Assembly (NCBI GenBank): GCA_001802945.1
Contig: MHAK01000077.1
Coordinates: forward strand, 37,520-101,519
Direction: 5' to 3'
Length of the DNA: 64,000 nt
Source of the DNA: Ignavibacteria bacterium RIFCSPLOWO2_12_FULL_56_21
GTDB taxonomy: Bacteria > Bacteroidota > Ignavibacteria > UBA10030
This document shows, piece by piece, positions 42,809 through 63,264 of this stretch. The notes beneath the pieces were generated by a model. That model made no database searches. It saw only the letters and a program-made list of their open reading frames with translations, and had not been told where the DNA came from. Position 1 is the stretch's first letter. The number at the start of each line of letters is the position of its first letter. The translations under genes were made by a program, and so were the position numbers.

Positions 42809-42863
42809 GCCACAAAGACGCAAAGTCACGACAAAGATCAATTATTGTATTGCTCTCTTTGTG
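42809..42863. repeat. Multi-register inverted-repeat element A
   Basis: GC-CACAAAG-a-CGCAAAG-t-cacGACAAAG, loop, CTTTGTG. CACAAAGA and TCTTTGTG form an 8-bp perfect pair. Confidence 0.8.
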
Positions 42864-42864
42864 T

Positions 42865-42907
42865 CTTGCCCGCCCGAATGAAGTGTCTGTAAAGCGGTCG
42901 GGCGCGG
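42865..42907 (+). repeat. 43-nt dispersed repeat, copy 1
   Basis: CTTGCCCGCCCGAATGAAGTGTCTGTAAAGCGGTCGGGCGCGG. Internal CGCCCGA/TCGGGCG stem. A near-identical reverse-complement copy lies at 63135-63179. Confidence 0.85.
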
Positions 42908-42932
42908 TGATCTAGTGGCAAATATTCTTCCA

Positions 42933-44219
42933 TTAATGAGATCTAAGCCGGTCGATGGTATTCCAGAATCCCGGAAATGAGACTTCAACACACGAGGCGT
43001 CGTCGAGGATGACTCCAGGGACCACAAGGCCGGCGACGCCGAACGCCATGGCTATCCTGTGATCACCCGCGGTACCGATGCGACCGCCAATTACGGCGTT
43101 ATTGGGCCCAAAAGCAAACCCATCGGCATACTCTTCCACTTCGACTTCCATGCTCCGGAGATTCTTGACAAGTAGCTCGATCCTGTCGGATTCTTTGACC
43201 CGTAGCTCCTGTGCCCCTCGAAGTCTGAAGCTGCATCCCGCAACTGCGGCGGCGACCGCGAGCATCGGAATCTCATCGATCACAGATGCGGTCTCGGGGG
43301 CAGAAATGTCGAGTGCGCCTGAGAGCCCGCTCGCGCGAACGCGCACATCCGCAATCTCCTCGCCGGCGACAGTGACACGTTCCACAACTTCCAGCGAAAC
43401 ACCGAGACGGCGGAAGCGCTCGAACACTTGCGCACGCGTCGGATTGACGCTCACACGTTTCAGGAGAATGTCAGAGCCCGGAAGGAGCGACGCTGCGGCA
43501 ATGAGAAAAACGGCCGCCGAAGTGTCGCCAGGGACGCTGTATTCTCTTGCAGGGATAGACATTCCACCCTGCGTGGTCACAGCTCTTCCCTCAGGCACAT
43601 CGAAGCTCTTCAATCCGAGCATTCGTTCCGTATGATCTCGCGTCGGTATCGGCTCGACGACCGTCGTCTCTCCCGCTGCATACATTCCCGCAAGCAGAAT
43701 CGCCGACTTGACCTGGGCGCTTGGAACGTCCGCAATGAACCGAAGCGGTCGCAGGTAAGGATTGCCTTTCACTGCGATCGGGGCTGTGCCTGCCGGTGTT
43801 CCTGAAATGGAAGCGCCCATCTTCGCCAGCGGCCCAAGTACGCGTTTCATCGGCCGCTTCATCAGCGAACCGTCCCCTGTCAACGTGCTTTCAAAAGTCT
43901 GTCCGGAAAGTATTCCACAGAGAAGTCGCATTGTCGTACCGGAATTGCCGCAATCCAAGGCGGCTGCTGGAGCCGAAAATCCCCTGGTTCCTCGGCCGAT
44001 CACTTCAGTTGTGTTCCTTTCCTCATGTACCTCAATGCCTAGGGCACGGAGACAATGGACCGTGCTCTTTGGATCTTGAGCAGCAGACAGTCCATGGATG
44101 ACGCTTTTTCCAGTGGCGAGCGCCGAGAAGAGAAGCGCCCGATGGGAGACGGATTTGTCCCCCGGGAGCATAACCTCACCGGTCAGCCGGCGCGCAGGTT
44201 CAATGGCATGTCCGCTCAT
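42933..44219 (-). CDS. aroA: 3-phosphoshikimate 1-carboxyvinyltransferase (EPSP synthase)
   Basis: Start moved to ATG 44219. LPGDKSVSHRALLFSAL..GNSGTTMRLL..RVKESDRI. Confidence 0.95.
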   Translation of the reverse strand: MSGHAIEPARRLTGEVMLPGDKSVSHRALLFSALATGKSVIHGLSAAQDPKSTVHCLRALGIEVHEERNTTEVIGRGTRGFSAPAAALDCGNSGTTMRLLCGILSGQTFESTLTGDGSLMKRPMKRVLGPLAKMGASISGTPAGTAPIAVKGNPYLRPLRFIADVPSAQVKSAILLAGMYAAGETTVVEPIPTRDHTERMLGLKSFDVPEGRAVTTQGGMSIPAREYSVPGDTSAAVFLIAAASLLPGSDILLKRVSVNPTRAQVFERFRRLGVSLEVVERVTVAGEEIADVRVRASGLSGALDISAPETASVIDEIPMLAVAAAVAGCSFRLRGAQELRVKESDRIELLVKNLRSMEVEVEEYADGFAFGPNNAVIGGRIGTAGDHRIAMAFGVAGLVVPGVILDDASCVEVSFPGFWNTIDRLRSH

Positions 44220-44228
44220 AAACGACAA

Positions 44229-44263
44229 ATCCTCTTCCTGCCGGCGAACCGGCGGAAGAGGAT
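44229..44263 (-). promoter_or_regulatory. 15-bp-stem hairpin plus T-rich spacer abutting the aroA start codon
   Basis: Minus strand reads ATCCTCTTCC-GCCGG-ttcg-CCGGC-a-GGAAGAGGAT-ttgtcgttt-ATG. The only SD-like purine run (GGAAGAGGA) lies in the 3' arm. Confidence 0.6.
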
Positions 44264-44310
44264 CTTCGGTAATGTGACTCTGGAGACGTACGTAGCCGTC
44301 TCAAGAACAG

Positions 44311-44404
44311 ACTCTCGCAACGACGCAACGCTCGTAACGAAATCTTTTATGGATATTTGTGCAGCAAACACAATATTTCAAAACGTTGCAGGCGTCGCGA
44401 GAGT
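44311..44404. repeat. Multi-register inverted-repeat element B
   Basis: ACTCTCGCAACGA-CGCAACG-CTCGTAACGA, a loop of about 45 nt, then CGTTGCAGGCGTCGCGAGAGT. ACTCTCGC and GCGAGAGT form an 8-bp pair. Confidence 0.75.
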
Positions 44405-44424
44405 AATTTTGAGACCGGCTCTAG

Positions 44425-46599
44425 TCACTTCCTGAATGGCCGTCCATGTCCCGAGCTTCTTCCCCGGTCACCCTGACGGCGTTCCCGTTGCTTGTTGATC
44501 TCTTCCATGGCGTTCTCACCGCCAGGAAGCAACGCTTTCCTGCTCAAGCTCATCTTGCCGGCATCGTCGATCAGCATCAACTTCACCTGGATCTCGTCGC
44601 CGACCTTCAACATGTCTTCAACTTTTTCCACCCGTTTGACGTCTAGCTGGGAAACGTGCACGAGCCCTTCCCTACCCGGCAGGATCTCGACGAATGCGCC
44701 GAAGTCCATGATCTTCTTCACCGTAGCCGTGTACACCTTGCCAACTTCCGGCAGCTGGGTGATGTCATTGATCATGCGAATGGCCATTTCCGCTGCCTCT
44801 CCTTCGACGGCCGCAATCGTGATCGTACCGTCATCCTCAATGTTGATCTCGGCTCCGCTTTCCGCGGTGATATGCCGAATGATCTTGCCGCCCGGTCCGA
44901 TGACCGCGCCGATCATATCGACAGGTATCTTGATCGTTTGGAGCCGTGGAGCATACTTCGAAAGTTCTGCACGCGGCGTACCGATCGCCTCCGACATGAC
45001 TTTGAGGATGTGCAACCGTCCGGCCTTTGCCTGGGCGAGCGCTTTTTCCATGATGGCAAAGGAAATGCCCTTGATTTTGATGTCCATCTGGAAGGCTGTG
45101 ATACCCGCTTCGGTTCCGGCGACCTTGAAATCCATGTCGCCAAGATGGTCCTCATTTCCGAGGATGTCGCTCAGAATAGCGACCTTGTCCTTCTCTTTGA
45201 CAAGACCCATGGCGATGCCAGCAACGGCGCGCGGCATCGGAACTCCGGAATCGAACAGCGCAAGACTGCCGGCGCATACCGTCGCCATCGATGACGATCC
45301 GTTCGATTCGAGGATATCGGAGACAATGCGAAGAGTGTAGGGGAATGTCTTTTCGTCGGGAACGATCACTCTCAGCGCGCGCTCGGCGAGATTTCCGTGT
45401 CCGATTTCGCGCCTGCTGGTGGAACCAAGGCGTCCGGTTTCGCCAACGCTAAACGGCGGAAAATTGTAATGCAGCATGAAGCGCTTGGACGTCTCGGGCT
45501 GCAATCCGTCCAGGATCTGCTCGTCCATTTTTGTTCCTAGCGTGGCGGTGGTCAGGCTTTGTGTTTCGCCACGCGTAAACAGGGCCGAACCATGGGTCCG
45601 CGGCAACAAGCCGACCTCGATGGTGATCGGGCGAATATCCGTCAGACCCCGGCCGTCCAGACGCTTTCCTTCGTCCAGGATCGTCCAACGCATCGATTCT
45701 TTTTCGATGTCGTGAATGACGCCGTTGATTGCGGTATCCTGTTCCGGGTATTTCTCTGCAAGTGCGGTTGTGACCTCCGTATAGACCGTCTCCGTGCGTT
45801 TGGAGCGCTCTTCTTTGGCAAGGACCGTTTTGCTGAGCTCCTTCAGTTTGCCCTCGCACAGAGCTTTGACATCGTTGACCAGGCCGTCGGGAATCGACGG
45901 GAGCACGATCTCCCGCTTCGCCTTGCGGATCGCCTTGGCGAGCTCGACTTGAGCCCGGCACAGCTCCCGGATGGCGGAGTGGGCGACGTTGATGGCGGCA
46001 ATCATGTCGGCTTCGGATATTTCTTTCGCCTCTCCCTCGACCATGACGATGGAATCGTCCGTACCGGCAACGGTAACGTCCATATCGCTACGATCGAGTT
46101 CCTCGTATGTCGGATTAATGACATATTGTCCGTCGACGCGTCCCACTCGTACTTCGGCGACTGGTCCGTCGAACGGAACATCCGAGACCATCAATGCAGC
46201 TGACGCCGCGCAGGCGCCGAGGACATCGCCGTCGTGCTGGCGGTCGGAGGAGTAGACGGTGACGATAACCTGCGTTTCGTTCCGGAAATCCTTCGGGAAC
46301 ATCGGGCGGATGGGTCTGTCAATAAGCCGGGCCGAGAGGATCTCCCGTTCAGACGGACGTCCCTCGCGTTTGAAGAAGCCCCCCGGAATCTTTCCGGCAG
46401 CGGCCGTCTTTTCCCGATACTCCACCTGGAGCGGGAAGAAATCTACGCCTTCCCTGGGTTCACGTGCGCACACGACGGCCGCGAGGACCATCGTGTCCGC
46501 ATATTGCACCATCACTGCGCCGTCCGCCTGCTTGGCGAACCGGCCTGTCTCAAACGTGAAGGTCTTTCCGTTGAGTGTAAGTTCCTGCGTGTGTTTCAT
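44425..46599 (-). CDS. pnp: Polyribonucleotide nucleotidyltransferase (PNPase)
   Basis: 724 aa with two RNase PH domains, a KH domain and an S1 domain (GKVYTATVKKIMDFGAFVEI). Confidence 0.97.
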   Translation of the reverse strand: MKHTQELTLNGKTFTFETGRFAKQADGAVMVQYADTMVLAAVVCAREPREGVDFFPLQVEYREKTAAAGKIPGGFFKREGRPSEREILSARLIDRPIRPMFPKDFRNETQVIVTVYSSDRQHDGDVLGACAASAALMVSDVPFDGPVAEVRVGRVDGQYVINPTYEELDRSDMDVTVAGTDDSIVMVEGEAKEISEADMIAAINVAHSAIRELCRAQVELAKAIRKAKREIVLPSIPDGLVNDVKALCEGKLKELSKTVLAKEERSKRTETVYTEVTTALAEKYPEQDTAINGVIHDIEKESMRWTILDEGKRLDGRGLTDIRPITIEVGLLPRTHGSALFTRGETQSLTTATLGTKMDEQILDGLQPETSKRFMLHYNFPPFSVGETGRLGSTSRREIGHGNLAERALRVIVPDEKTFPYTLRIVSDILESNGSSSMATVCAGSLALFDSGVPMPRAVAGIAMGLVKEKDKVAILSDILGNEDHLGDMDFKVAGTEAGITAFQMDIKIKGISFAIMEKALAQAKAGRLHILKVMSEAIGTPRAELSKYAPRLQTIKIPVDMIGAVIGPGGKIIRHITAESGAEINIEDDGTITIAAVEGEAAEMAIRMINDITQLPEVGKVYTATVKKIMDFGAFVEILPGREGLVHVSQLDVKRVEKVEDMLKVGDEIQVKLMLIDDAGKMSLSRKALLPGGENAMEEINKQRERRQGDRGRSSGHGRPFRK

Positions 46600-46609
46600 G
46601 GATCCTTCC

Positions 46610-46627
46610 TATGTACGCACGGACGTC
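46610..46627 (-). promoter_or_regulatory. rpsO-pnp intercistronic hairpin
   Basis: CGGACGT-cgtt-ACGTCCG, 11 nt upstream of the pnp ATG and 22 nt after the rpsO stop. Confidence 0.5.
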
Positions 46628-46648
46628 GTTACGTCCGCGGGGCACCGC

Positions 46649-46918
46649 TTACTTGCGGATATCCAGTTCCTGGATGATCTTGCGGTACCGGGTGATGTCT
46701 TTTTTCATGAGATAATCGAGAAGCCGGCGGCGCTTGCCGACAAGCTTCAGCAGTCCAAGTCGCGAATGATGATCGTGACCGTGGCCTCCGAGGTGCGGAG
46801 AAAGGCTGTTAATATGAGCGGTGATGACGGCGATCTGGACCTCGGGAGTGCCGGTATCTCCGGGTTTCTTCCCGTACTTCGTGATCAATTCCGTCTTTTG
46901 CTCTTTCGTGATTGGCAT
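46649..46918 (-). CDS. rpsO: 30S ribosomal protein S15
   Basis: [47 protein letters not shown]. Confidence 0.97.
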
Positions 46919-47026
46919 AACTACTCCGTATAAATAATTGGCTATGGAAATGCACGATACCTTAAACTGTGACTCTTGTGCCTATTGGCAAGAATGCAAA
47001 AGTGAAGGTCAATTCTAAGCCGTTGA

Positions 47027-47980
47027 TCACACTACAAACTGACGCACCAGCACTTTCGCCTGTTCGCGGTCGAGATCCATCTGTTTGATCAACTCATCTG
47101 CACCGTCAAATCGCCGTTCATCCCGGAGGCGCTGAAGAAACGTCATCGTCAGCCGCTTTCCGTAGAGTGCTCCCTCAAAATCAAGAATGTAGACTTCGAC
47201 GGTTCGGGCGCCTGTGGGTCGAAACGTCGGCCGGGTTCCAATGCTCGCGAGACCGAACCTGGACTTTCCGTCTCCGAGATCCACGCTGACGAAGTAAATG
47301 CCGTCGTGCGGGATCAATTTCTTTGCGAACTCCGGCGAGATGTTCGCCGTGGGATATCCCAGCGAACGTCCCCGTTTGTCCCCTTCCACCACAGTCCCGG
47401 TCACGGCATAAGGACGTCCCAGGAACCGCGCCGCCCGCGTCACATCTCCTTCGAGAAGCTGTTCGCGGATGACTGAACTGCTGACGGGAACATCATCCAC
47501 GTTTACCTGTTGCACCGCCGTGATGGTGAACGTGAATTCCCTTCCCAGCGCAAGTACGGCTTCGATGCTGCCCTCACGGTCTCTTCCAAAATGGTGATCG
47601 TACCCTTCCACCATTTCGCTGACCCCCGTACCACGAACAAGATAGTTTAGGATGAAGTCGCGCGATGAAAGACGCGAGAATTCATACGTGAACGGAACGA
47701 CGAGCATGACGTCGATCCCAAGGTCCTCACAAAGCGCGCGACGCTCTTCCGTCGAGGTCAGACACAGCACCGGCTTTTCCGGCCGGACGATCTCGCGTGG
47801 ATGCGGGTCGAACGTCACCAGGATGCTTCTTCCCTTCCTGTCTCGCGCACGTTCGATGACGTCCTTCAGGATCTCCCGGTGGGCCAGGTGGACGCCGTCA
47901 AACGAACCGACCGTGACAACGGAATTCCGGTCGTAGCCAACCTCTTCAAGACGTCGGGCGAACTTCATACGTTTCTGCAT
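47027..47980 (-). CDS. ribF: Bifunctional riboflavin kinase/FMN adenylyltransferase
   Basis: VVTVGSFDGVHLAHREIL..GYPTANI..RPTF. The start could be ATG 47980 or ATG 47968; both overlap the truB 3' end. Confidence 0.92.
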   Translation of the reverse strand: MQKRMKFARRLEEVGYDRNSVVTVGSFDGVHLAHREILKDVIERARDRKGRSILVTFDPHPREIVRPEKPVLCLTSTEERRALCEDLGIDVMLVVPFTYEFSRLSSRDFILNYLVRGTGVSEMVEGYDHHFGRDREGSIEAVLALGREFTFTITAVQQVNVDDVPVSSSVIREQLLEGDVTRAARFLGRPYAVTGTVVEGDKRGRSLGYPTANISPEFAKKLIPHDGIYFVSVDLGDGKSRFGLASIGTRPTFRPTGARTVEVYILDFEGALYGKRLTMTFLQRLRDERRFDGADELIKQMDLDREQAKVLVRQFVV

Positions 47981-48659
47981 GCAACAATTGCCGCGCTTCT
48001 TCGAGTTGTTCCATCGTCCAGGCATCGCCGACGCTCCAAGGACCCACGCGAGTGCGCCGTAATGACGTTAGAGTTGCACCGCAACCGAGCCGCTCCCCGA
48101 TATCATGAACAAGCGACCGGACGTACGTACCTTTCGAACACACAAGCCGGAAGTGCACGTCGGGCAGAGAAACTTGTGTGGTTTCAATGGCTGAGATGTC
48201 GACCTGCCGGGGGACTCTTTCTATCGACTTCCCCTGACGGGCGTATTTGTAGAGCGCCCGACCTTTATATTTCGCCGCCGAATACATGGGCGGCATTTGG
48301 TCCTGAGGTCCCAGGAAAGCTTTCACCGCCTCCTCTACGACCGCGGACGAAATGTGACTCCAAGGTCGTTCTTCCTCAACGGGAGTCTCCATGTCAAACG
48401 ATGCGGTTCGTATGCCCAGTCGAAACGTCCCGATATACTCTTTGTCGTATCCGACATACGTCGTAATCAGCTTTGTCTTGGGGCCCGTGCAGAGCACGAG
48501 CAGCCCCGTTGCAAGAGGGTCAAGCGTACCGGCATGGCCGATCTTCCGGATGTGGAACAGATTGCGGACCTTGCGAACCACATCGAACGACGTCCAGGCC
48601 TGAGGCTTGTCAACCTGCAGCACTTCTCCAAGCACGTTAAAATCCCAGCTCTGCGTCAT
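47946..48659 (-). CDS. truB: tRNA pseudouridine(55) synthase
   Basis: KIGHAGTLDPLATGLLVLCTG. ATGA overlap with rbfA. Confidence 0.95.
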   Translation of the reverse strand: MTQSWDFNVLGEVLQVDKPQAWTSFDVVRKVRNLFHIRKIGHAGTLDPLATGLLVLCTGPKTKLITTYVGYDKEYIGTFRLGIRTASFDMETPVEEERPWSHISSAVVEEAVKAFLGPQDQMPPMYSAAKYKGRALYKYARQGKSIERVPRQVDISAIETTQVSLPDVHFRLVCSKGTYVRSLVHDIGERLGCGATLTSLRRTRVGPWSVGDAWTMEQLEEARQLLHAETYEVRPTS

Positions 48660-49033
48660 GACGTTGAATCATCGTCCTCTGATCGGGAGCGCTCTTCGTC
48701 GTGGATCTTCTTGAAGATCGCCTCCAGGTTCATGGCGCGGTCCATGGTATCGTCCAGGACGAACATGATCTCGGGCGTGAACCTCAGACGGACGGCGCGG
48801 CCGATCGTGGAACGAACGACCTGTTTCTGTTCTTCGAGCAGGGTCAACGACTTTTTCTTGCGTGCGTCATCGCCAAATACGCTCACAAAGATGCGCGCCT
48901 GCCGAAGGTCCGGTGTCATCCGCACTTCGGTGACGGTCATGAACCCGAATTCTTCCATGCTGAAGCGGCGTTGAAACAATTGCCCGACCTCCTCCTTGAT
49001 AACGGAGGCAACGCGTTCCGATCGAAGTGACAC
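48656..49033 (-). CDS. rbfA: Ribosome-binding factor A
   Basis: RSERVASVIKEEVGQLF..VTEVRMTPDLRQARIFVS. Confidence 0.93.
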   Translation of the reverse strand: MSLRSERVASVIKEEVGQLFQRRFSMEEFGFMTVTEVRMTPDLRQARIFVSVFGDDARKKKSLTLLEEQKQVVRSTIGRAVRLRFTPEIMFVLDDTMDRAMNLEAIFKKIHDEERSRSEDDDSTS

Positions 49034-49043
49034 GACACACCCG

Positions 49044-51680
49044 TTAATCCAATTTCCGTTTCGTTTCTACGGTACGGTATGACTCGATCACATCACCGAC
49101 CTTGACGTCGTTGAAGTTCTCGAGGCTGATGCCGCACTCAAAGCCTTGCTCGACTTCTCGCACATCATCTTTGAATCGCTTCAGGGACGCGAGCGTTCCG
49201 TCGAAGATCTGTATGGCATCGCGGACAAGCCGAACACGGCTGTTGCGGTTGATCTTCCCCTCCCGGACGAAGCATCCTGCGATAGTTCCGACCTTGGAGA
49301 TCTTGAAAATGTCCCGGACTTCGACGGTCGACGTCACCTCTTCGCTGACGGTTGGCGCCAGCATGCCCTCGAGAGCGTTTTTCACGTCATTGATGGCATC
49401 GTAAATGATGCTGTACAGGCGGATGTCGATGTCTTCCTGCTCCGCAAGCTGTCGGGCTTTGAGATTCGGCCTCACATGGAAGCCGATAATGATCGCCTGA
49501 GAGGCAACGGCCAATAACACGTCGGATTCGGAAATGCCACCCACGGCCTTATGGATGACCTGCACGTTTACTTCACCGGTTGACAGCTTCATGAGGGAGT
49601 CGGACAGGGCTTCCGCCGAACCGTCCACGTCCGCCTTGACGATGATGGGAAGATCGCGGACCTGTCCTGTCTTAATCTGCTGCGAGATATCGTCCAGCGT
49701 GACGCGCCGGTTTTGACGAAAATCCTGTTCCCGCTTGAGCTGCTGGCGACGATTGCTGATCTCGCGCGCTTCCCGCTCGTCGTTCATGACGATGAGAGGA
49801 TCACCGGCCTGAGGAATTCCTTCGAATCCGATGAGCTGGACCGGCTGCGACGGCTTGGCATGTTCGACTCTCCCGCCACGTTCGTCAAACATGGCGCGAA
49901 TGCGTCCGCTCCAAATACCGCAGACAAACGCATCGCCGACATTGAGCGTACCCTTTTGCACCAGTACGGTCGCCGTGATCCCTTTTCCCTTGTCCAACTC
50001 CGCTTCGACCACGGCGCCACGTCCCAATCGGTCAGGGTTGGCCTTCAGCTCGAGCACTTCAGCCTCAAGGAGGATCTTCTCAAGCAGCAACTCAACGTTC
50101 TTTCCAGAACGGGCCGAGAGAGCAACCACTTGGTGCTTACCACCGTAATCTTCAACTAGCAAACCACGGTCGGCCAGTTGTTGTTTGATGCGGTCGGGGT
50201 TCGCGTCCGGCTTATCGATCTTGTTGATGGCAACGATCATCGGCACATTCGCAGCTTGCGCATGGCTGATGGCTTCGATCGTCTGTGGCATCACGCTGTC
50301 GTCCGCGGCAACAACGAGGACGACGATATCGGTGACCTGTGCGCCGCGGGCGCGCATGGCCGTGAAGGCCTCGTGACCCGGCGTATCGAGGAAGGTGATC
50401 TGCTTTCCGTTCGGAAGCGAGACTTCGTATGCTCCAATGTGCTGAGTGATGCCTCCCGATTCTCCGGCCACAACGTTCGCGCGTCGAATGTAGTCGAGCA
50501 ACGACGTTTTGCCGTGATCGACGTGCCCCATAATGGTCACAACAGGGGCGCGCGGCTTCAGGTCCTCCGGTTCATCGGCTTCATCGCGCAATTCGTCGGA
50601 AGCGAATTCATGCTGGAAATCGATGTGGAACCCGAACTCATCTGCGACGAGCGTGATCGTATCCTTGTCCAAACGCTGGTTGATTGACACCATGATGCCG
50701 AGTGACATGACTTTCTGGATAACCTCTGCCACGGTCACTCGCATCATATTTGCAAGCTCGCCCACGGTGACAAATTCCGTCATCCGAAGCTGGGACTTGT
50801 CCCGTTCGATCTGTTCCAGGATCTGTCGCTCTTCTTCTTCCCGTTTCTCCTTCTTTCGCTTCTTGATGGCCGCGCGCGACGTTGCGGTATCGTCGGTCAT
50901 CTCCGAGAGGGTCTCGCGAATGGCCTTGTCCACGGCGATCTCGCTGACCTCTGCGCGTCGACCTTTCTTCCGCTTCTTTCCCTTGGCTCCCTCCTCTTCG
51001 TCGGCGAGCGCGGTCGGCTTCGCTTTGACAACCTCTGCACGAACCTTCTTCTTTTTCTTCTTCTTTTTCTTGTCTTCTTCGGATTCAACCGGGGCGGCCG
51101 GTTTCGGTTTGACAAGGTCCATCTTGCCCTTGATCGTCAATCCTCTGCCGGAACGGGCCTGCAACGTTTCGAGTGGTGACCGGACTCGATTGAGGTCTGG
51201 GGAGGCGGGCGCTGTTGCTGAGGGCGGAACGGGTTCTTCGGTCGGTGAGGTTGCAGCGGCCGCGATTTCCGCGGGTACTTCCGCTGGCGCAACGTGTTCT
51301 TCTGTCGCAGTTTCAGGAAGGCTTTCCGTCGGGACTTCGACGACAGGTTCAGCGACCGTGACTTCTGCCTCCGCGGGAAGCTCTGTCGCCGCTTCTTCGG
51401 GTTTTGCCGGCGCCTCGTCCTTTGCCGCCTTTTTCTCGGATTTGTCGGACGGCTCTTTTTTGCGCGACGTGCGGAATTCCTGAACCTTGCGCTGATGCCG
51501 TTCTGCGACGTCCCGCTCCTTTTTGAAATGCGCCATGACCGCATGAATCATGTCGTCGGTGGCGACACTCATATGGTTCTTCGCATCGAATCCCTTCTTA
51601 TGAAGGAATTCCAGGATGGTCTCGCTGGCCAGGTTGAGCTCTTTGGCCAGATTGTAGATCTTGACCTTCTTTTCAGCCAT
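49044..51680 (-). CDS. infB: Translation initiation factor IF-2
   Basis: 878 aa. [13 protein letters not shown]-domain and a low-complexity acidic/Lys-rich N-terminal region. Confidence 0.97.
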
Positions 51681-56109: not shown

Positions 56110-56122
56110 TCGTTCTCAAAAT

Positions 56123-56190: not shown

Positions 56191-56202
56191 CGTCCTCGGC
56201 CT

Positions 56203-56346: not shown

Positions 56347-56393
56347 GGGATGTCGTTGTGGTCCTTCTTGTTTCAAAGTCTTCGAAGTATTAC

Positions 56394-56867
56394 TCAATGT
56401 CGGTCGGGTGAGGCAATGAACTCGCAGTTGCGCCCCTCAAACTTGACGACCCGGGAACGAAAGTCTTCGGGAACCGGTACGGGCTTGTCGGTTTTCGGGT
56501 CGAGCCACACGTGGTACGCCACATTTTCCGCTACAGCCTCTCCGGTATCTGCACGCTCCATGAGCCCTTCCATGGCAAAGCTGGTGTTCTTTATGAAGGC
56601 GATGCGTGTGCGTACGGTTAAGAGTTGGTCGAACAACGCCGGCGCCTTGTAGTTGATCTCATTTCTGACGAGCACGACTTTTGAAGCTCCGTTGATCATG
56701 TTGAGATCAATCTGCGCGCCGATGTTCTTCAGGTATTCAACGCGCCCCACTTCGAAGTAGAGAAGATAGCTACCGTTATGGACAATACCCTGCCAGTCCA
56801 CTTCGTAGTTGCGAACGCGGAGCTGGTTGGAAAAAGAGAACTTTGAGGCTTCCATGGTTGGGCGCAC
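56394..56867 (-). CDS. Acyl-CoA thioesterase, hotdog fold (YbgC/4HBT family)
   Basis: LRVRNYEVDWQGIVHNGSYLLYFEVGRVEYL. Confidence 0.85.
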   Translation of the reverse strand: MRPTMEASKFSFSNQLRVRNYEVDWQGIVHNGSYLLYFEVGRVEYLKNIGAQIDLNMINGASKVVLVRNEINYKAPALFDQLLTVRTRIAFIKNTSFAMEGLMERADTGEAVAENVAYHVWLDPKTDKPVPVPEDFRSRVVKFEGRNCEFIASPDRH

Positions 56868-56893
56868 ACCTAGTGGACCATTGTTGAATCAAA

Positions 56894-56994
56894 CCGCGAA
56901 TGAACGCTCATAAACGCGAGTAAGTATTATGTATAACAACCAAAAATCACTACCCAAAACGGCTAACGGTTTTGCAATTAGCGTACATTCGCGG
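56894..56994. repeat. Multi-register inverted-repeat element D
   Basis: Units CGCGAAT, CGCTCAT and CGCGAGT start at 56895, 56905 and 56915. CCGCGAATG (56894-56902) pairs perfectly with CATTCGCGG (56986-56994). Confidence 0.8.
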
Positions 56995-57006
56995 TCGTTT
57001 ACTTTC

Positions 57007-58035
57007 TTACGCGCCGAATTCCATCGCAATCGCGTTAGCGGCCATACGTACTTCCGCTTGTGACACATCCAGATGCATGACGGCGCGGACGGTGTGGCGG
57101 TCCATGTCGGAAAGGAGGACGCCGCGCGCTTTCATTCTCGCTATGACGGCCGATGCATCGAGCCCTGATTTCGAGACATCCACTGCGACAATGTTGGTCT
57201 GTACGGACTTCATGTCGACCGAAAATCCTTTGACGCCACCGACGATCTCTGCATAGGTCCTGGCCTTTTCGTGGTCTTCGGCAAGGCGGTCAACATTGTT
57301 CTGCAAAGCAAAAAGAGCACCTGCGGCGATGATGCCGGCCTGACGCATTCCACCACCAAGTATCTTGCGAACCTTGCGCGCTTTGGTGATCAGCTGTCGG
57401 GAGCCCGCGACTGCAGATCCCACCGGTGCGCCAAGTCCTTTCGAAAAGCAGACAGACACAGTATCTGCGCAGGCCGCGAAATCCCGAGGTTTCACGCCCG
57501 ATGCCACGCTTGCATTCCAAAGCCTCGCTCCGTCCACATGAAGTGAAAGTCCCTTTGACGTGGTCATGGAACGAAAGGCCCTAAGCGTTTCGAGCGGTAC
57601 AATCGTTCCCCCCGCTTTATTGTGTGTGTTCTCCAGACAGATCAGGCGAGTCGGAGGCATATAATACGCAGACCCGCGAATGAGATCTTCCACTTGCGCA
57701 ACCGTTGGCACTCCCCGTTCACCGGCGACTTGTCGCAGCTGCACTCCCGATATAATCGGCGCAGCAGCGGTTTCGTACTGTAGAATGTGTGCACCAGCTT
57801 CAACGATTACTTCATCTCCGGGCTGCGTCTGAATTTTCAGCGAGATCTGATTCGCCATGACACCGGTCGGAACGAAGAGCGCCGCTTCCTTTCCCAACAC
57901 TTCTGCTACAGTCTCTTCGAGGCGACGAACGGTCGGGTCTTCGCCAAACACGTCATCCCCCACCTCTGCATCGGCCATAGCTTTCCGCATGGCGGGGGAA
58001 GGCTTGGTGACGGTATCGGAACGTAGGTCAATCAT
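57007..58035 (-). CDS. ltaE: Low-specificity L-threonine aldolase
   Basis: [46 protein letters not shown] (PLP lysine). Confidence 0.92.
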
Positions 58036-58117
58036 AGATCAGGAAAGAAAACAGTTCGTATTTCTTCAGCGCCGCAAAATTCGCACTCTGTCTAGCCCGT
58101 CGCCTCCGGAGATGTTC

Positions 58118-58181
58118 CACGAATTCACACGAATGATACACGAATTAGCACGAATGAAAGATTAAGTTCTGACAATTCGTG
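58118..58181. repeat. Multi-register inverted-repeat element E
   Basis: CACGAAT at 58118, 58128, 58139 and 58149, and a single ATTCGTG at 58175. Confidence 0.85.
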
Positions 58182-58372
58182 ACCATTTGCGTCAAAACTA
58201 TAGACAGCATTCATGTTCATTAGTGGACAACTCCTATAAATCGCGCTTCACCCAACTCGACTCACCTCAGAGCCAACTGCATGCCTGGTTTACGGTGAAG
58301 CAGTCAATAACCAACAACCAACAAGGAACAACCAATGAACAAGTGCGATTGTTTCGAAAGCCAAAAAGATAT

Positions 58373-58472
58373 CCACTAAGGGCCACGAGACACACGAAGG
58401 AAGAAATATATTCACCTTACCTTAGTGCCCCTTCGTGCCCCGGCTCTACCTCGCCTTAGTGGCCCTTCGTGG
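58373..58472. repeat. Multi-register inverted-repeat element F (likely the lnt terminator)
   Basis: CACTAAGG, CACGAGAC and CACGAAGG at 58374, 58384 and 58393. CCTTAGTG, CCTTCGTG, CCTTAGTG and CCTTCGTG at 58420, 58430, 58454 and 58464. On the minus strand the structure is followed by ATATCTTTTTGG. Confidence 0.85.
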
Positions 58473-58480
58473 AAGAATCT

Positions 58481-60139
58481 TTACCGGCCGCGACCAAGTC
58501 GCTTGAACGCAACGAACATACTCAGAACTCCTGCCCCAAACAAATTCACAAGACCGACAACGTCGCCGTGGCGGACATAGAACGTCTCGTCCGTTCGTGG
58601 TATGACTACCCCCACCCATGCAGCCCGTTCGTAAAGTCTGGACCGCCGGACGATCCTTCCGTTCGGATCGACGATTGCCGAAACGCCTCCGTTTGCGCAC
58701 TGGACGATCCACCGGCGATTCTCTGCCGCACGGATAGACGCGAACGCCACATGTTGATACGCCCCAGAGGTTCTGTCCCACCATGAGTCATTTGTAATGA
58801 CGGTCAGTACTTGCGCCCCTTTGCGGGTGAATTCGCGCACATAGTTTGGATAGACCGACTCATAGCAGATCATGACGGACAATCGGACAGAATCACCGGC
58901 ACGCGTTCCGACGGTGTACACAGTAGTGTCTTTTCCCATTCCCCAACTGCTTATTCCGACCCCCCATTTCAGCGGTTCGATGAGAAAGCGGAATGTCTCG
59001 GCGTATGGCAATCGTTCAGCAAAGGGAACAAGGATGACCTTCTTATAGACAGGTCCGACGTTGCCGCTTGGGTCTATGAGCGTCGCCGAATTGTACGATT
59101 CATAGTAAGTATCCGAACCTGCAATCGGTTTGGCAGTCACCGGGGCCTCTGACTTCGCAAAGAACAGAACATGTGGAAGTCCGGTCATCACTGTGGCCTC
59201 GGCGTCGCGGGCAACAGATTTTACGTGGTCGAGATATGATCGATAGCCGGGCAGGAGCATCCAAACAGGGATGGCGGTCTCGGGCCACACCACAAGGTCG
59301 GGCCGTTCGGAAAAGAGAGTTCGCGTCAACGAATCCAGTAGGAGCATCTGGCGTTCATACGACGTCCATTTGTCCGTCGAGTTCATCCCCCATTTTTCCC
59401 AAGGATCGACATCGGGTTGCACAATCCCCACACGCGTTGGCGGAAGGACGTTTCCACGATCGACGTCGTCCATTCTCAACGATCCCCACAAGAGCGGTGC
59501 AACGTACACGGTTATCATAGCTGCTGCGAGCCCGAAAGTTCGTCCGCGAGAAGCCGGCCAGCGCCCCTCGGCGACTTCCATGAGGGCCAAATAGGCAAGA
59601 ACGTTGAACGCCAGGAGGTGGAGCGTCAATCCCTGGACTGACGTGAACTCGGCCATTTGGATCCTGAGGATATCGTTGGCCTGACTGTTCCCGACAGAGA
59701 TCCACGGAAAACTGAATTCACCCCGTGCATGGAAGTATTCGAAAGCGGTCCAGAAGCAAACGAACCCTATCAACCCAATAATGCGACCTGCCTTACGACG
59801 GGAATACCAAGCGGCGAGGACGAACGGCAAGAGAAAGAACGGATGTAGGAGCAAGAGTCCACCACCGGCGACCATCATCCAACCGTCATTGGCGTGCGTG
59901 AACCCTCCGGTCCAGTAGACGGTTGTCGCGTGAAAGACCATCAGGAAAAAATAGGTGAACCGGGCCATACGCCAACCGGATGCCTCGGCATCGAGGACCG
60001 TGAAGAATGGAATAAAGGCGATGAATGCGAGGGACGAAATGGGAGAGGGCGGGAACGACAGTCCCAGGAGCAGCCCCGACAGCACGGACCGTGCAACGGG
60101 AGATGTGTAAAGTCGCGAAAGAAGAGTCTGTGCGTCCAT
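58481..60139 (-). CDS. lnt: Apolipoprotein N-acyltransferase
   Basis: Multi-pass N-terminal half plus a CN-hydrolase domain (VVWPETAIP; VMICYESVYP). Confidence 0.92.
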   Translation of the reverse strand: MDAQTLLSRLYTSPVARSVLSGLLLGLSFPPSPISSLAFIAFIPFFTVLDAEASGWRMARFTYFFLMVFHATTVYWTGGFTHANDGWMMVAGGGLLLLHPFFLLPFVLAAWYSRRKAGRIIGLIGFVCFWTAFEYFHARGEFSFPWISVGNSQANDILRIQMAEFTSVQGLTLHLLAFNVLAYLALMEVAEGRWPASRGRTFGLAAAMITVYVAPLLWGSLRMDDVDRGNVLPPTRVGIVQPDVDPWEKWGMNSTDKWTSYERQMLLLDSLTRTLFSERPDLVVWPETAIPVWMLLPGYRSYLDHVKSVARDAEATVMTGLPHVLFFAKSEAPVTAKPIAGSDTYYESYNSATLIDPSGNVGPVYKKVILVPFAERLPYAETFRFLIEPLKWGVGISSWGMGKDTTVYTVGTRAGDSVRLSVMICYESVYPNYVREFTRKGAQVLTVITNDSWWDRTSGAYQHVAFASIRAAENRRWIVQCANGGVSAIVDPNGRIVRRSRLYERAAWVGVVIPRTDETFYVRHGDVVGLVNLFGAGVLSMFVAFKRLGRGR

Positions 60140-60157
60140 GTCAATCGGCCGGACGAC

Positions 60158-60733
60158 CTAACGTCCGTCGACCTTCCGGCGGAGGATCATCTTTTCCGCC
60201 CACATCCCGGCCCACAAGATTGCCATAGCTCCGAGCGTCCCAAGGGCGGCCCCGCCCAGGACGTCGAACGGATAATGCGCCCCGACATAGATACGCGAGT
60301 ATGCGACGAGGAAAGCATAACCGAGCAGATACCACAATACCCGGGGGAAAAAAAATCCAAGAACAATCGCCCCAGCGAACGAATTCACAGCGTGTGAGGA
60401 AGGAAACGATTTCCCGGGACCGCAGTCGACGAGCATTCGCACTTCAGCCAGTTCCTGACACGGACGCGGACGGTCGACGAACGATTTGATCAGTCCGCTG
60501 TTCACTTGATCCGTAATGATAATGGTGATCACGAGCATAGCGATCGCGCGGCGTCCTCTCTCCCCTCCCTTCCAGAGTCCCCAGACGATCAGCGCTCCAA
60601 CAACGGCCAGCATCAGCGGCTGTTTGTTAAGGTCGGTCAGGAACGGCATGACGACGTCGAACACGCTGTTGGTCCACACCTCGTTGATCCTGTGGAACAG
60701 CGAAATATCCAGTGCGTAGAGTGCTTCCATCAT
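60158..60733 (-). CDS. PAP2-family phosphatase
   Basis: Start moved to ATG 60733 (ATGA overlap with the DedA stop). KSFPSSHAVNSF and SRIYVGAHYPFDVLGG. Confidence 0.85.
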   Translation of the reverse strand: MMEALYALDISLFHRINEVWTNSVFDVVMPFLTDLNKQPLMLAVVGALIVWGLWKGGERGRRAIAMLVITIIITDQVNSGLIKSFVDRPRPCQELAEVRMLVDCGPGKSFPSSHAVNSFAGAIVLGFFFPRVLWYLLGYAFLVAYSRIYVGAHYPFDVLGGAALGTLGAMAILWAGMWAEKMILRRKVDGR

Positions 60734-61362
60734 TGCGGATTCGCGGGTCCGTTTGAGTTCGTCGACGACCGTCGCAGATAGAATCTGTACAGAAGATACC
60801 CTGCGAAGAAGAGCACGACGACGATGGTGACCGTCCGTCCGTATGCCGCAAGATAGTCGCCGATCTCCCTCCAATTCGTCCCGAGGGCGTCACCCGACGT
60901 TACGAGGATTGCGTTCCAGGCGAGAGCGCTGAAGAAGGAAAGGAGAACACATGTCGTCAAGGAAAGATCGGACATCCCGGCGAAGAACGACACAACCGCC
61001 CGCGTTCCCGCGAGAAACCTGTTGGCTACGACGACCCAATAGCCATAGTGTCGAAACCAGTTCTCGACTTTCGTCACCTGGTCGACGGGAATGAATTTGA
61101 AACGTCCGGTTTCGAGTATATGCGAACCGATCCATCCTCCAATACGGTACATCGCAAGAAATCCAAGCGTGCTTCCGACCGTTGCGGAAAGCGTCAGCGT
61201 AACAGCATCCACCCTGCCGCCTGCGGCGAGAGATCCCGCCGCGACAACGACGACGTCACTCGGAAACGGTGGAAAGATATTCTCGATGAATGCGATACAT
61301 CCGACGGAAGCATACACCCAGATCGGGTCGAGTTGAGAAAGCGTTTCGAAGAGTGCTTCCAC
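60730..61362 (-). CDS. DedA/SNARE-associated family membrane protein
   Basis: ENIFPPFPSDVVVVAAG..RFLAGTRAVVSFFAGM. Confidence 0.88.
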   Translation of the reverse strand: MEALFETLSQLDPIWVYASVGCIAFIENIFPPFPSDVVVVAAGSLAAGGRVDAVTLTLSATVGSTLGFLAMYRIGGWIGSHILETGRFKFIPVDQVTKVENWFRHYGYWVVVANRFLAGTRAVVSFFAGMSDLSLTTCVLLSFFSALAWNAILVTSGDALGTNWREIGDYLAAYGRTVTIVVVLFFAGYLLYRFYLRRSSTNSNGPANPQ

Positions 61363-61364
61363 GG

Positions 61365-61868
61365 TCAGCGCGTCGAAGTAATCAGTGCGATGGCCATGGC
61401 GGCACAGCCTTCGGAGCGGCCGAGGGTGCCGAGCAGCTCGTTGGTGGTGGCTTTGACGGAGACCGAACGCGCCGGAATTCCGATCGTTCGGGCGATCCGG
61501 GCCTCCATCGACCGTGTGCGGGCTCCGATCTTCGGATATTCGAGGATCACTGTTGCATCGATGTTCACGACTCCATAGTGTTTTGACTCCAAGAGCGCAG
61601 CCACCTGTTCTAGGAGCTTTAGACTGGATATTCCTTTGTACTTGGATTTTGAATTGGGAAAATGTTTGCCGATGTCTCCCAATGAAGCGGCGCCGAGCAA
61701 TGCATCGCAGACAGCGTGGAGCACTACGTCGGCATCCGAATGACCTTTCAGAGAAACGGTTGATGGGATGGAGACTCCACCCAGAACGAGACGACTGCCC
61801 GGAACGAGGCGGTGGATGTCGTAACCGAAGCCGACGCGGATGCTAGTTGATATCGATGGTTTTGGCAA
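61365..61868 (-). CDS. ispF: 2-C-methyl-D-erythritol 2,4-cyclodiphosphate synthase
   Basis: GFGYDIHRL..GHSDADVVLHAVCDALLGAASLGDIGKHFP. Apparent TTG start. Confidence 0.94.
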   Translation of the reverse strand: MPKPSISTSIRVGFGYDIHRLVPGSRLVLGGVSIPSTVSLKGHSDADVVLHAVCDALLGAASLGDIGKHFPNSKSKYKGISSLKLLEQVAALLESKHYGVVNIDATVILEYPKIGARTRSMEARIARTIGIPARSVSVKATTNELLGTLGRSEGCAAMAIALITSTR

Positions 61869-61904
61869 CGTCGTTTTATGGTGTAGAGATTGGGAAGAAA
61901 CAAA

Positions 61905-62036
61905 CCACTAATGAGCGCGAATGCACGCGAATATAGAGGTATTCCTAAAACGCTTTCCTATTGACGATTCACTATTCACCAAAACATTATTCGCGCCTGC
62001 CATCTTTTTGGCGGGTTCATTCGCGTGTATTCGCGG
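61905..62036. repeat. Multi-register inverted-repeat element G
   Basis: CACTAAT, CGCGAAT and CGCGAAT at 61906, 61916 and 61926. ATTCGCG at 61989, 62019 and 62029. On the minus strand it is followed by TTTGTTTCTT. Confidence 0.85.
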
Positions 62037-62041
62037 TTCAA

Positions 62042-62068
62042 TCTTTCAAAACGCCAAGACTTGGCGTT
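62042..62068 (-). terminator. Terminator overlapping the acyP stop codon
   Basis: AACGCCAAG-a-CTTGGCGTT (62050-62068), followed on the minus strand by TTTGAAAGATT. Confidence 0.65.
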
Positions 62069-62339
62069 ATTGCACATCAAACCCCGAAAACTTCCCTGTC
62101 GGTTCTTCCCACTCGATCGATATACCCGTCACCATGGCAGAACGAGGTCCGGTACGCGCGAGCGACATAAGTTGCTCCAAAACCTCTTTCGAACCTTCGG
62201 CTACGATCTCCACATCGCCGTTCGGACGGTTGCTTACCGAGCCGCGAAGAGCGAGAGCTCTCGCTTTCGTTTGGATGAAATAGCGATATCCGACACCCTG
62301 CACAAGTCCAGTGACGACGCAATGAACACGAGCATTCAT
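62067..62339 (-). CDS. acyP: Acylphosphatase
   Basis: Start moved to ATG 62339. VTGLVQGVGYRYF..GSVSNRPNGDVEIVAEG. Confidence 0.9.
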   Translation of the reverse strand: MNARVHCVVTGLVQGVGYRYFIQTKARALALRGSVSNRPNGDVEIVAEGSKEVLEQLMSLARTGPRSAMVTGISIEWEEPTGKFSGFDVQ

Positions 62340-62495
62340 CGAGCGGTTAACATAGTAAGGGGTGGGGCGAAATGCAAAAAGGGCAAGCACCAATTTTCAA
62401 TAGCCAAATACCAAACAAGCATCAATAGCCTTATGGTGAAGAACGATGTTGAATTTCCAATACACAAGAAGTGTGTCTGTATGGACAGAAATCGC

Positions 62496-63095
62496 CTATG
62501 AAGTGCCGTGTAAGAAACGAGCAGCGATCGTTTTGGCATATGCCAGATCGCGCCCGGAGATGTTTTGTGCCACCGCGATCCAATGTAAAATCTCTGATTC
62601 GGCAATATTTGCCCGATGAGCCCCGCGTACATGCGAAAGGAATTGCTTGTGGAGCCCCTGAGTTGCAAGGACTGTCATCGTGACCAGTTCACGCGTACGA
62701 AAGTCGAGGCCGGGACGACTGAAAACGGTACCGTAAACGTCCCGCAGGATCCACTGCGGCAAAAACGAGGAGACGGCCTTGAGTCTCTTGAGAACGATCG
62801 GGGCTTGTTCTCCATATACAGCCAAGAAGGTCTTCTTCCCACGGACATGTGAAGGTTTAAAGAATGTGAGTGGAATGGCGCCCGCAGAATGCGAAAGTCT
62901 TTCAAGGGCGTCGAGCGTTGATGGGACTCCGAGTAGCAAAGCGAGATGCAGAATGGTCTCAGAGGCGTCCTTGATGGAGACGATCTCTCGCTTGAGGGTC
63001 CGCCGTATCAGACGGTCAGCTTCATCCCGGCATCCGACGGCGAGGAGGACCGCCAGGGTAACGAGAGTTCGTTCACGTGGAGGAAGGTCGGACAT
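62496..63095 (-). CDS. Carboxymuconolactone decarboxylase (AhpD-like) family protein with two CMD repeats
   Basis: Start moved to ATG 63095. PRERTLVTLAVLLAVG and DFRTRELVTMTVLATQG repeat halves. Confidence 0.8.
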   Translation of the reverse strand: MSDLPPRERTLVTLAVLLAVGCRDEADRLIRRTLKREIVSIKDASETILHLALLLGVPSTLDALERLSHSAGAIPLTFFKPSHVRGKKTFLAVYGEQAPIVLKRLKAVSSFLPQWILRDVYGTVFSRPGLDFRTRELVTMTVLATQGLHKQFLSHVRGAHRANIAESEILHWIAVAQNISGRDLAYAKTIAARFLHGTS

Positions 63096-63134
63096 GTGAA
63101 AGAGCAAGAGTAAAAGAAATTGCCAGTACGACAC

Positions 63135-63179
63135 CTCGCCCGACCGCTTGTAGGCACTTCATTCGGACGGGCGGGCAAG
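63135..63179 (-). repeat. 43-nt dispersed repeat, copy 2 (reverse orientation)
   Basis: The reverse complement reads CTTGCCCGCCCGtccgAATGAAGTGCCTACAAGCGGTCGGGCGAG. It shares identical 12-, 9- and 12-nt blocks with copy 1. Confidence 0.85.
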
Positions 63180-63205
63180 TCATTAAGAAAAGTTGGAAGT
63201 ATTTA

Positions 63206-63264
63206 GCCGCAAAACATCGCATGAGTCACAAAATACTTTAGCACATTTTGCGCCTTTGTGCGGC
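63206..63264. repeat. Multi-register inverted-repeat element I
   Basis: CGCAAAA, CGCATGA and CACAAAA at 63208, 63218 and 63227. ATTTTGCG at 63245 and CTTTGTGCGGC at 63254. GCCGCA pairs with TGCGGC. Confidence 0.75.

Follow-up and report, generated by a model that had tools for sequence, protein, structure and literature searches.

Heptamer-array palindromes in intercistronic spacers of an Ignavibacteria genome and their possible nuclease partner

Nine intergenic palindromes whose arms are tandem arrays of heptamer units (elements A to I) were found within 25 kb of a groundwater Ignavibacteria metagenome-assembled genome, in a 64,000-nt stretch of contig MHAK01000077.1 that is referred to here as the window. 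The elements contain no gene and are assigned, with moderate confidence, to a widespread class of palindromes interspersed between genes. This class, apparently unnamed, resembles repetitive extragenic palindromic sequences (REPs) and REP doublets forming hairpins (REPINs), and it is possibly partnered with a nuclease of the GxxExxY family. Interspersed palindromes such as REPs, REPINs and miniature inverted-repeat transposable elements (MITEs) shape operon expression and genome plasticity, and good descriptions of them come mainly from Proteobacteria and a handful of pathogens. The class analysed here spans phyla, and its copies seem to be plentiful in metagenomes of soil, sediment, sludge and groundwater. 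GxxExxY proteins form a very large family of small nucleases on which, to our knowledge, almost no literature exists, and the class suggests a concrete candidate function for this family that can be tested.

Structure and distribution of the palindromes

The original prediction, made from the letters of the window, had described eight of the elements as one family with covarying arms. All eight were found by direct reading and by two scans, with units within 1-2 nt of the predicted positions; the list was short by element H, and element B proved longer than described. The unit-agnostic scan searched for chains of at least three copies of any 7-mer with at most one mismatch, 8-12 nt apart, with dinucleotide shuffles as null, and recovered A, B, C and E together with H. 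A family-specific scan recovered C, D, E, F, G and I and detected no copy in positions 1-38 kb of the window. The whole window holds 10 chains versus a mean of 3.9 in the shuffles, about 5.1 kb of crude intergenic DNA holds 4 versus 0.245 expected, and 2 versus 0.01 are obtained there if an exact inverted copy is required. The covariation of the arms was borne out as well: the reverse complement of a unit matches the opposite arm of its own element with 0 mismatches in 7/9 elements and the arms of other elements in 7/72 pairings (permutation p = 5e-5). Independent gene calls agree that every copy is intergenic, and each one lies between co-directional genes.

The unit differs from locus to locus (CACAAAG, CGCAACG, CACGAAG, CGCGAAT, CACGAAT, CACTAAG and CGCAAAA in the window), and all of these fit C-R-C-N-R/M-A-K; the word common to the units of the window, its relatives and metagenomes is C-R-C-R-R-A-K. 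The outermost unit usually reads CCRC and the opposite arm GYGG. In all nine copies the CRC-type array comes first and the complementary array second. Since a palindrome reads the same on both strands, this polarity is intrinsic and independent of gene direction, and it remains unchanged whichever way the palindrome inserts, so that a fixed polarity is expected from common descent and not from independent local origin. Fixed polarity and a word common across phyla therefore favour common descent over independent local origin. The period of the units is 8-11 nt in the window, and in the wider class periods of 8, 9, 10 and 11 nt were counted 68, 187, 98 and 8 times, period 7 being present in just 2/371 unit pairs.

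A heptamer-array palindrome was defined as an intergenic element in which a CRC-first array of no fewer than 2-3 CRCRRAK units, repeated every 8-11 nt, is separated by an A/T-rich loop from an inverted array downstream. All nine window copies conform to this definition, and further copies with the same architecture were present in relatives and in unrelated metagenomes. Upstream of ispF in two relatives from the Genome Taxonomy Database (GTDB) with about 60% protein identity, CACAAAG x3 is followed by CTTTGTG and CTTTGCG (L010), and CGCAGAG/CGCAAAG x3 by CTTTGCG x2 (L018). A Planctomycetaceae contig (L086) carries CACGGAG x3 and then CTCCGTG x3. At least 120 metagenome loci from soils, sediments, sludge and groundwater match the narrow pattern CACGAAK N1-4 CACGAAK N1-4 CACGAAK; all metagenome figures given here refer to 120 listed loci. 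These loci contain 150 arrays, and an exact inverted unit lies within 300 nt downstream in 85 of them, which thereby belong to the class, and upstream in 14. Loops have a median of 41 nt, complementarity of the two arms extends to the spacers that separate the units, and the median fold z-score is -4.9, with 40/49 elements below -3. The outer consensus reads aaaa..TTTcAC|CACGAAG...CTTCGTG|GTgAAA..tttt, and arrays of CACAGAG, CGCAAAG, CACGGAT and CGCGAAA on the same contigs keep the CRC-first polarity. The window elements are thus local members of a broad class. A BLAST search of a plasmid collection with a typical element gave no match, for which the low-complexity filter is possibly responsible.

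The multi-copy arm had been predicted to be always the 3' arm on the minus strand. This is clear for A, C, D and E (1 versus 3-4 units) and weakly so for B, H and I (2 versus 3); it fails for F (4 versus 3) and G (3 versus 3), and the array-selected metagenome copies display no consistent asymmetry in unit number. In the metagenome loci L091-L210, T is absent from the 5' arms and A from the 3' arms, so that neither arm holds a stop codon on either strand and spurious open reading frames (ORFs) run through the elements. The crude ORF map did so in 17/49 metagenome cases, and the window contains the spurious ORFs 56137-56397 and 58187-58459. For annotation, the elements explain unusually long spacers between otherwise abutting housekeeping genes; moreover, caution is advised in labelling such sites as terminators, promoters or small ORFs, and their arms break ORF callers.

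The gene order acyP-ispF...lnt-ltaE-thioesterase-trpE is retained in about 25 Ignavibacteria loci, and the spacers were compared with those of 8-27 syntenic relatives per junction. The spacer from acyP to ispF measures 198 nt in the window versus a median of 21 nt in the relatives, that from lnt to ltaE 445 versus 13 nt, that from ltaE to the thioesterase gene 139 versus -8 nt, and that from the thioesterase gene to trpE 284 versus 6 nt. Because the spacers of the relatives are tiny compared with those of the window, the elements fill lineage-specific expansions. The junctions that hold them are normally almost gap-free and probably co-transcribed. The nearest other species have about 60-67% protein identity, at which orthologous spacers are not alignable. 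Elements B and H are paralogs with about 70% identity over about 118 nt, the loop included (alignment z = 25.6), in the same orientation relative to the genes. The pairing of A with C and of D with G, made by eye, was rejected as kinship, the resemblance being confined to shared units and a few flanking bases.

Association with GxxExxY nuclease genes

In 6/120 array-selected loci listed, ORFs of the PDDEXK_3/TIGR04256 'GxxExxY' family lie inside or against the arrays. One of them (L127) was used as protein query and gave 7,999 matches at E <= 1e-10 among 8,000 candidates scored. The matches listed for it (L213-L221; P0121-P0240) are 80-100% identical to one another, are located mostly on very short contigs, and include two labelled Nitrospiraceae and Chloroflexota. 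A cassette that is present in many copies, moves horizontally and disrupts assembly behaves in this way. At 3/3 independent sites fetched via protein homology alone (L213, L215 and L221), whose flanking host genes are unrelated, the palindrome tightly encloses the GxxExxY gene. The layout is TTCAC(CACGAAG)2-3, about 20 nt, a GTG start codon, the ORF, its stop codon, 2-8 nt and an inverted array. The inverted array reads (CTTCGTG)3 GTG at L213 and L215; at L221 a single CTTCGTG follows the stop codon and a three-unit array lies about 75 nt beyond.

Genes for REP-associated tyrosine transposases (RAYTs) were tied to REPs through the inverted repeat copies that flank them, according to the available text of PMC3116915 and PMC3733652, and nuclease genes found within heptamer palindromes at unrelated sites follow the same logic. 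Like a RAYT gene, the gene flanked by inverted repeat copies of the heptamer class in other genomes is small and of nuclease type; unlike RAYTs, which are Y1 HUH transposases, its product is a PD-(D/E)XK member (PDDEXK_3). By analogy with REP/RAYT, heptamer-array palindromes and GxxExxY (PDDEXK_3, TIGR04256) proteins may form a previously unrecognised repeat-plus-nuclease partnership, a proposal that is put forward tentatively and could well prove mistaken. A PD-(D/E)XK nuclease of about 123 amino acids, encoded in the loop of a palindrome with (CACGAAG)n arms, would recognise the extruded hairpin or cruciform, and through its action the cassette would spread or home across phyla. The nine palindromes of the window would be examples of gene-less copies left behind in this process, which host transcripts would carry as structured intercistronic hairpins.

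The elements share with REPs, REPINs and bacterial interspersed mosaic elements (BIMEs) that they are short intergenic palindromes with many copies (nine in 25 kb) in intercistronic and 3' positions, that they lack target-site duplications, that subfamilies coexist in one genome and that hairpin-forming doublets are present. They differ in that the GTAG/CGTC tag of REPs is absent, the elements being headed by CCRC and ending in GYGG, and in that their arms are tandem heptamer arrays, whereas REPs are single 20-40-nt palindromes. Unlike REP/RAYT, the heptamer class was seen on Ignavibacteria and Planctomycetes contigs, and related nuclease genes are labelled Nitrospiraceae and Chloroflexota. 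The resemblance to MITEs and to Correia and enterobacterial repetitive intergenic consensus (ERIC) elements comprises terminal inverted repeats, an A/T-rich core, a length of 50-150 nt, an intergenic, co-transcribed position, and gene-carrying as well as gene-less versions. No target-site duplication above chance and no transposase of the insertion sequence type were found, unlike in MITEs, and the inverted repeats of the elements are 7-mers repeated in variable number. A further resemblance is to the intervening sequences of 23S rRNA, in which a long hairpin carries a small selfish-looking ORF in its loop and of which gene-less versions exist; unlike these, the elements are intergenic, do not lie in rRNA helices and are associated with a different ORF family. 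An example of a small ORF in such a long stem-loop is the Coxiella intervening sequence (PMC4990558, available text).

Heptamer tandem repeats, namely the short tandemly repeated repetitive (STRR) sequences of cyanobacteria and the TAACTGA repeats of Beggiatoaceae, Cyanobacteria and Bacteroidetes, are likewise composed of a few 7-nt intergenic units, often just before start codons, and have a patchy cross-phylum distribution suggesting horizontal spread (PMC4679880, available text). The same text describes the TAACTGA repeats as contiguous (period 7) and almost all direct, with 169 direct sets versus 1 indirect. The units of the elements are instead 1-4 nt apart (period 8-11), and an inverted partner array defines them. 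No description of such arrays was found in the papers searched by taxon, by concept or by literal array sequence; the nearest published repeats are these contiguous heptamers (PMC4679880) and the GTAG/CGTC REPs.

Transcription through the elements and alternative explanations

Elements B, D, F and H start 9-12 nt past a stop codon, and C, D, G and H stop just 21-42 nt short of the next start codon, so that the genes downstream of the latter must be transcribed through the elements. Both strands of the nine elements were folded. The sense strand forms 34 G·U pairs versus 12 on the antisense strand, and it is the more stable one in 7/9 elements. The 17-bp main stem of B and H differs by four substitutions in three pairs, all of which keep sense-strand pairing (one A-U to G-C double change, two kept via G·U; 0/17 pairs broken), and the loop differs at about 40% of positions. 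In this small sample, the predicted folds suggest that element transcripts form sense-strand hairpins. Some selection on pairing, as the original prediction had argued, is therefore plausible from the B/H stem changes and the sense-strand G·U pairs; its addition that pairing rather than a fixed word is selected was not supported, given the shared word and the fixed polarity (85 versus 14).

In the REP/REPIN-like explanation, each arm is a C-R-C-R-R-A-K heptamer array of period 8-10 nt, with the CRC array first, the MTYYGYG array second and an A/T-rich loop between them, and the elements arose by insertion or expansion where cistrons of co-directional housekeeping genes adjoin. As DNA they would behave like REPs and REPINs, being palindromic, free of target-site duplications, divided into subfamilies within one genome and nested among other repeats. 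In other genomes such a palindrome has the gene of a GxxExxY (PDDEXK_3) nuclease in its loop, and this nuclease may spread or maintain the elements. Once in place they would be part of the transcripts of their neighbours, in which they would form sense-strand RNA hairpins. These hairpins would serve to stop 3' exonucleases, to direct processing or to cause leaky termination between cistrons, a role distinct from that of canonical intrinsic terminators. Mobility of the elements and any benefit to the host are suggested with the same reserve. A MITE-like mobile family, one of the possibilities originally raised, comes closest to the evidence in that the expansions are lineage-specific and the architecture is abundant. 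A classical MITE is not supported, as direct repeats at the boundaries of the metagenome elements are distributed as in a shuffled-flank null and B and H have no target-site duplication.

Several observations weigh against this explanation. No transposase, RAYT or nuclease gene was present in the gene and Pfam calls of the 64-kb window, and a profile of 60 GxxExxY proteins searched against six-frame window segments yielded nothing better than E = 4; with neither gene nor remnant, the window copies represent the gene-less form. The protein-first sample of GxxExxY genes comprises one subfamily that was itself found via an array-selected locus. Only B and H were clear paralogs in an all-against-all alignment, and the other window copies share units and no extended sequence, so that descent from one element is presumed for them. 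Seven same-species assemblies with 99.6-99.9% identity to the window, among which the elements are nearly invariant, revealed no presence/absence or length polymorphism of any element and hence no sign of recent movement. At the RNA level, the folds of E, I and A are not stronger than those of shuffled sequences (z = -0.6 to -1.4), a transcription-linked C-to-T bias on the coding strand could be partly behind the G·U asymmetry, and this asymmetry was not seen in 9 metagenome copies in tandem context (crude gene calls). Furthermore, 36 gene 3' ends versus 36 gene 5' ends face the metagenome elements in crude ORF calls, which gives no clear preference for 3' ends.

Termination offers another explanation, in which the elements are non-canonical intrinsic terminators or attenuators with redundant registers: a 5' unit would pair with any 3' unit, and leftover U-rich 3' units (CUUCGUG etc.) would weaken the RNA-DNA hybrid. 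Like intrinsic terminators, bidirectional ones included, the elements are hairpins after stop codons with an A-rich 5' and a U-rich 3' side, also between convergent genes. Their T-free, A-containing 5' arms and A-free, T-containing 3' arms have the polarity of A-tract and U-tract, their upstream flanks are A-rich and their downstream flanks T-rich, convergent genes flank seven of the metagenome copies and divergent genes four, and the sense-strand G·U bias as well as the starts of B, D, F and H close to stop codons fit this idea. An intrinsic terminator, however, was taken to require a GC-rich stem with a 3-8-nt loop followed directly by a U-tract (>=5 U in 8), whereas the elements have loops of 17-90 nt, interrupted stems and no U-tract adjoining the stem. 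None was scored in a terminator consensus scan of 44100-64000, in which the lone match inside any element was a weak 6-pair hairpin in I (63254-63240, minus). The T-rich runs reported beside C, D, F and G do exist, and no terminator was scored there either. The stem of the wider class runs directly into GTGAAA. Moreover, canonical-looking terminators coexist with the elements and lie immediately upstream, in the direction of transcription, of G and I, where they already provide termination. The distance from C, D, G and H to the next start codon is too short for a promoter, and efficient termination would silence trpE and the thioesterase, ispF and Rieske genes. At the junctions compared, the relatives make do with spacers of 0-20 nt. 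The original proposal of intrinsic terminators is therefore not supported, and its non-canonical version is considered unlikely.

Binding-site arrays (iterons or operators), at which a protein recognising CRCRRAK would occupy head-to-head sites around an A/T-rich centre and serve promoter control or nucleoid organisation, are regarded as quite improbable. They would account for the shared word with invariant C1 and C3 and its fixed head-to-head polarity, for the upstream position of every window copy relative to some gene, and for element E, which has four direct copies 10-11 nt apart, one inverted copy and a fold at chance level. Helically phased iterons, as originally suggested, are contradicted by the period of the class, which peaks at 9 nt and not at 10.5 or 21 nt, 11 nt being rare, and no rep gene is present. 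Complementarity of the inter-unit spacers between arms is not needed for protein sites, and units match within a locus but differ between neighbouring loci of one genome. Genes downstream of the window elements have no common function, the 253-nt divergent promoter spacer 39446-39698 holds no element copy, and the metagenome copies between convergent genes do not fit promoter control. It is likewise doubtful that the elements are neutral by-products formed on the spot, with slippage duplicating a unit in one hairpin arm and template switching copying it across in relaxed intergenic DNA, without mobility or function. Internally repetitive arms, unequal copy numbers between arms and the lack of target-site duplications and recent polymorphism agree with such an origin. 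Additionally, the same construction with unrelated units was observed in other lineages (AATTG-type at L018, AGAAGGT at L031, GATGGGG at L074), and among the long simple repeats of bacteria those with heptamer units are the most frequent (Mrazek 2007, cited in PMC4679880). Independent origin, however, predicts both polarities and arbitrary units, and not the observed excess of one polarity and one word across phyla. The similarity of B and H at two distant loci extends into the loop, a conserved gene fits closely between the arms of this palindrome at sites that are unrelated, and the junctions, which have hardly any gap in about 25 relatives, offer no pre-existing hairpin to grow from.

Some further candidates were tried and rejected. 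The Bacteroidetes-type promoter (-33 TTG / -7 TAnnTTTG) is no organising principle of the elements, as 8 motifs were counted in the window versus about 20 expected; B and H carry TAATTTTG/TATTCTTG, a motif of this type, on the antisense strand. Scan matches to sigma-70 promoters were fewer than in shuffles, and a search of the loops for sigma-54 boxes gave none in B and, in H, a single plausible GG-N10-GC whose strand is the wrong one. Invertible promoters were dismissed, as the loops of 17-50 nt are too short and no recombinase gene is nearby. At the Rfam gathering score tRNA-Leu alone passes in the window, and in E-value mode the sole match overlapping an element is a greA leader over I (28.9 bits versus a gathering score of 60).

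Coordinates, gene context and neighbouring repeats

Genes between about 38.4 and 63.4 kb of the window are ordinary housekeeping genes and lie nearly all on the minus strand, with bshC (39699-41339, +) as exception. They comprise cytochrome b/Rieske, ferredoxin, ABC ATPase, aroA, pnp, rpsO, truB, rbfA, infB, nusA, rimP, trpGE, thioesterase, ltaE, lnt, PAP2, ispF, acyP, a CMD-family gene and tRNA-Leu.

Table 1. Position, units, gene context and predicted RNA fold of the nine elements in the window
Element	Position	Units (left arm, loop, right arm)	Unit starts	Gene context	Layout and fold
H	39012-39118	CGCAGCG, CGCAACG, CGCAACG; right arm TTGCGGTCGCCGCGAGAG		between ferredoxin stop (39128) and Rieske start (38970)	absent from the original list of eight; found by chain scan
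A	42809-42863	CACAAAG, CGCAAAG, GACAAAG, loop, CTTTGTG	42811, 42819, 42830; inverted 42857	between aroA stop (42933) and ABC-ATPase start (42749); abuts 54-nt module 42868-42921	z = -1.4
B	44298-44415	GTCTCAAGAACAGACTCTCGCAACGACGCAACGCTCGTAACG, A/T-rich loop of about 50 nt, CGTTGCAGGCGTCGCGAGAGTAATTTTGAGAC	44315, 44323, 44332; inverted 44384, 44393	starts 9 nt past pnp stop codon	long interrupted palindrome, outer ends GTCTCAAG...TTTGAGAC; sense -37.9 kcal/mol, z = -4.8; antisense -29.9
C	56130-56182	CACGAAG, CACGAAG, CACAAAG, loop, CTTCGTG	56130, 56138, 56146; inverted 56176	21 nt from element end to trpE start codon (56109)	z = -2.1
D	56894-56994	CCGCGAAT, CGCTCAT, CGCGAGT, loop, ATTAGCG, ATTCGCGG	56895, 56905; inverted 56977, 56987	starts 12 nt past ltaE stop; ends 27-39 nt short of thioesterase start	loop of about 75 nt with inner hairpin; z = -2.0
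E	58117-58181	CACGAAT x4 (spacing 10, 11, 10), 17-nt loop, single ATTCGTG	58117/8, 58128, 58139, 58149; inverted 58175	83 nt upstream of ltaE start codon	weak hairpin, z = -0.6
F	58373-58472	CCACTAAGG, CACGAGA, CACGAAGG, loop, CCTTAGTG/CCTTCGTG x2 each	58374, 58393; inverted 58421, 58455 and neighbours	starts 9 nt past lnt stop codon	sense -48.4 kcal/mol, z = -4.9; antisense -38.9
G	61905-62036	CCACTAAT, CGCGAAT, CGCGAAT, loop, ATTCGCG x3	61906, 61916, 61926; inverted 61989, 62019, 62029	between terminator-like hairpin after acyP (62043-62066) and ispF start (61868)	long loop with inner hairpin; z = -1.8
I	63206-63264	CCGCAAAA, CGCATGA, CACAAAA, loop, TTTTGCG, TTTGTGCGG	63208, 63227; inverted 63246 and next unit	between tRNA-Leu terminator and CMD-family gene (start 63095); 33 nt right of inverted 54-nt module copy (63120-63172)	z = -0.75

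Other repeats and hairpins adjoin the elements. A GC-rich module of about 54 nt (cttgcccgcccgaatgaagtg..aagcggtcgggcg.ggtg...tggcaa) is present in two inverted copies, on the plus strand beside A and on the minus strand near I, and carries its own CGCCCGA/TCGGGCG hairpin; a similar ...gacgggcaaatt end precedes C. Between the thioesterase stop codon and C lies a 210-nt GC-rich non-coding stretch (56183-56393) that holds ..ctgagcgaccgtagggagtcgaaggg.. motifs and from which about 58-69 nt are missing in strain L006. Hairpins like 'cctgagc...gtcgaaggg' and GTAGGGTGCG...CGCACC adjoin or lie within CACGAAG arrays at the metagenome loci L112, L192 and L205. The 190 nt between F and E (58182-58372) contain 6/7 single-nucleotide polymorphisms of that spacer in the window and the seven same-species assemblies, and E and F contain none; this stretch could be a small transcript or merely unconstrained DNA. 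On the sense strand, a TAGTTTTG box precedes E by 12 nt.

On the minus strand, a very strong hairpin at 44229-44265 (AUCCUCUUCCGCCGG..CCGGCAGGAAGAGGAU, then UUUGUCGUUU; -32.5 kcal/mol for the folded 61-nt segment) lies just 9 nt before the aroA ATG; leaky termination or attenuation between pnp and aroA could be its role. Where bshC (+) and the ABC-ATPase gene (-) converge, at 41340-41651, a canonical-looking terminator is followed by about six related GC-rich hairpins (CCGACC..GGTCGG and similar), a row that resembles a REP/BIME cluster. A sub-threshold Acido-Lenti-1 match is located at 41557-41603 of this spacer (25.3 bits versus a gathering score of 37).

Arms with other units were also seen outside the window. 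AATTG-type arms are located between two tRNA genes (L018, 4630-4740), AGAAGGT / CCTCTAAC arms before tRNA-Leu (L031, 5500-5595) and GATGGGG / CCCCATC arms on a Gemmatimonadetes contig (L074, 20650-20800), and period-7 CTGAYYY repeats run into a start codon at L010 4470-4535. In a low-GC relative (L019, 6440-6545), acyP and ispF are 194 nt apart, and the hairpins in that spacer are different ones (ccctctcctcacaggagaggg, cctcccctaagaggggagg); it seems that palindromes of unrelated kinds accumulate at this junction from one lineage to another.

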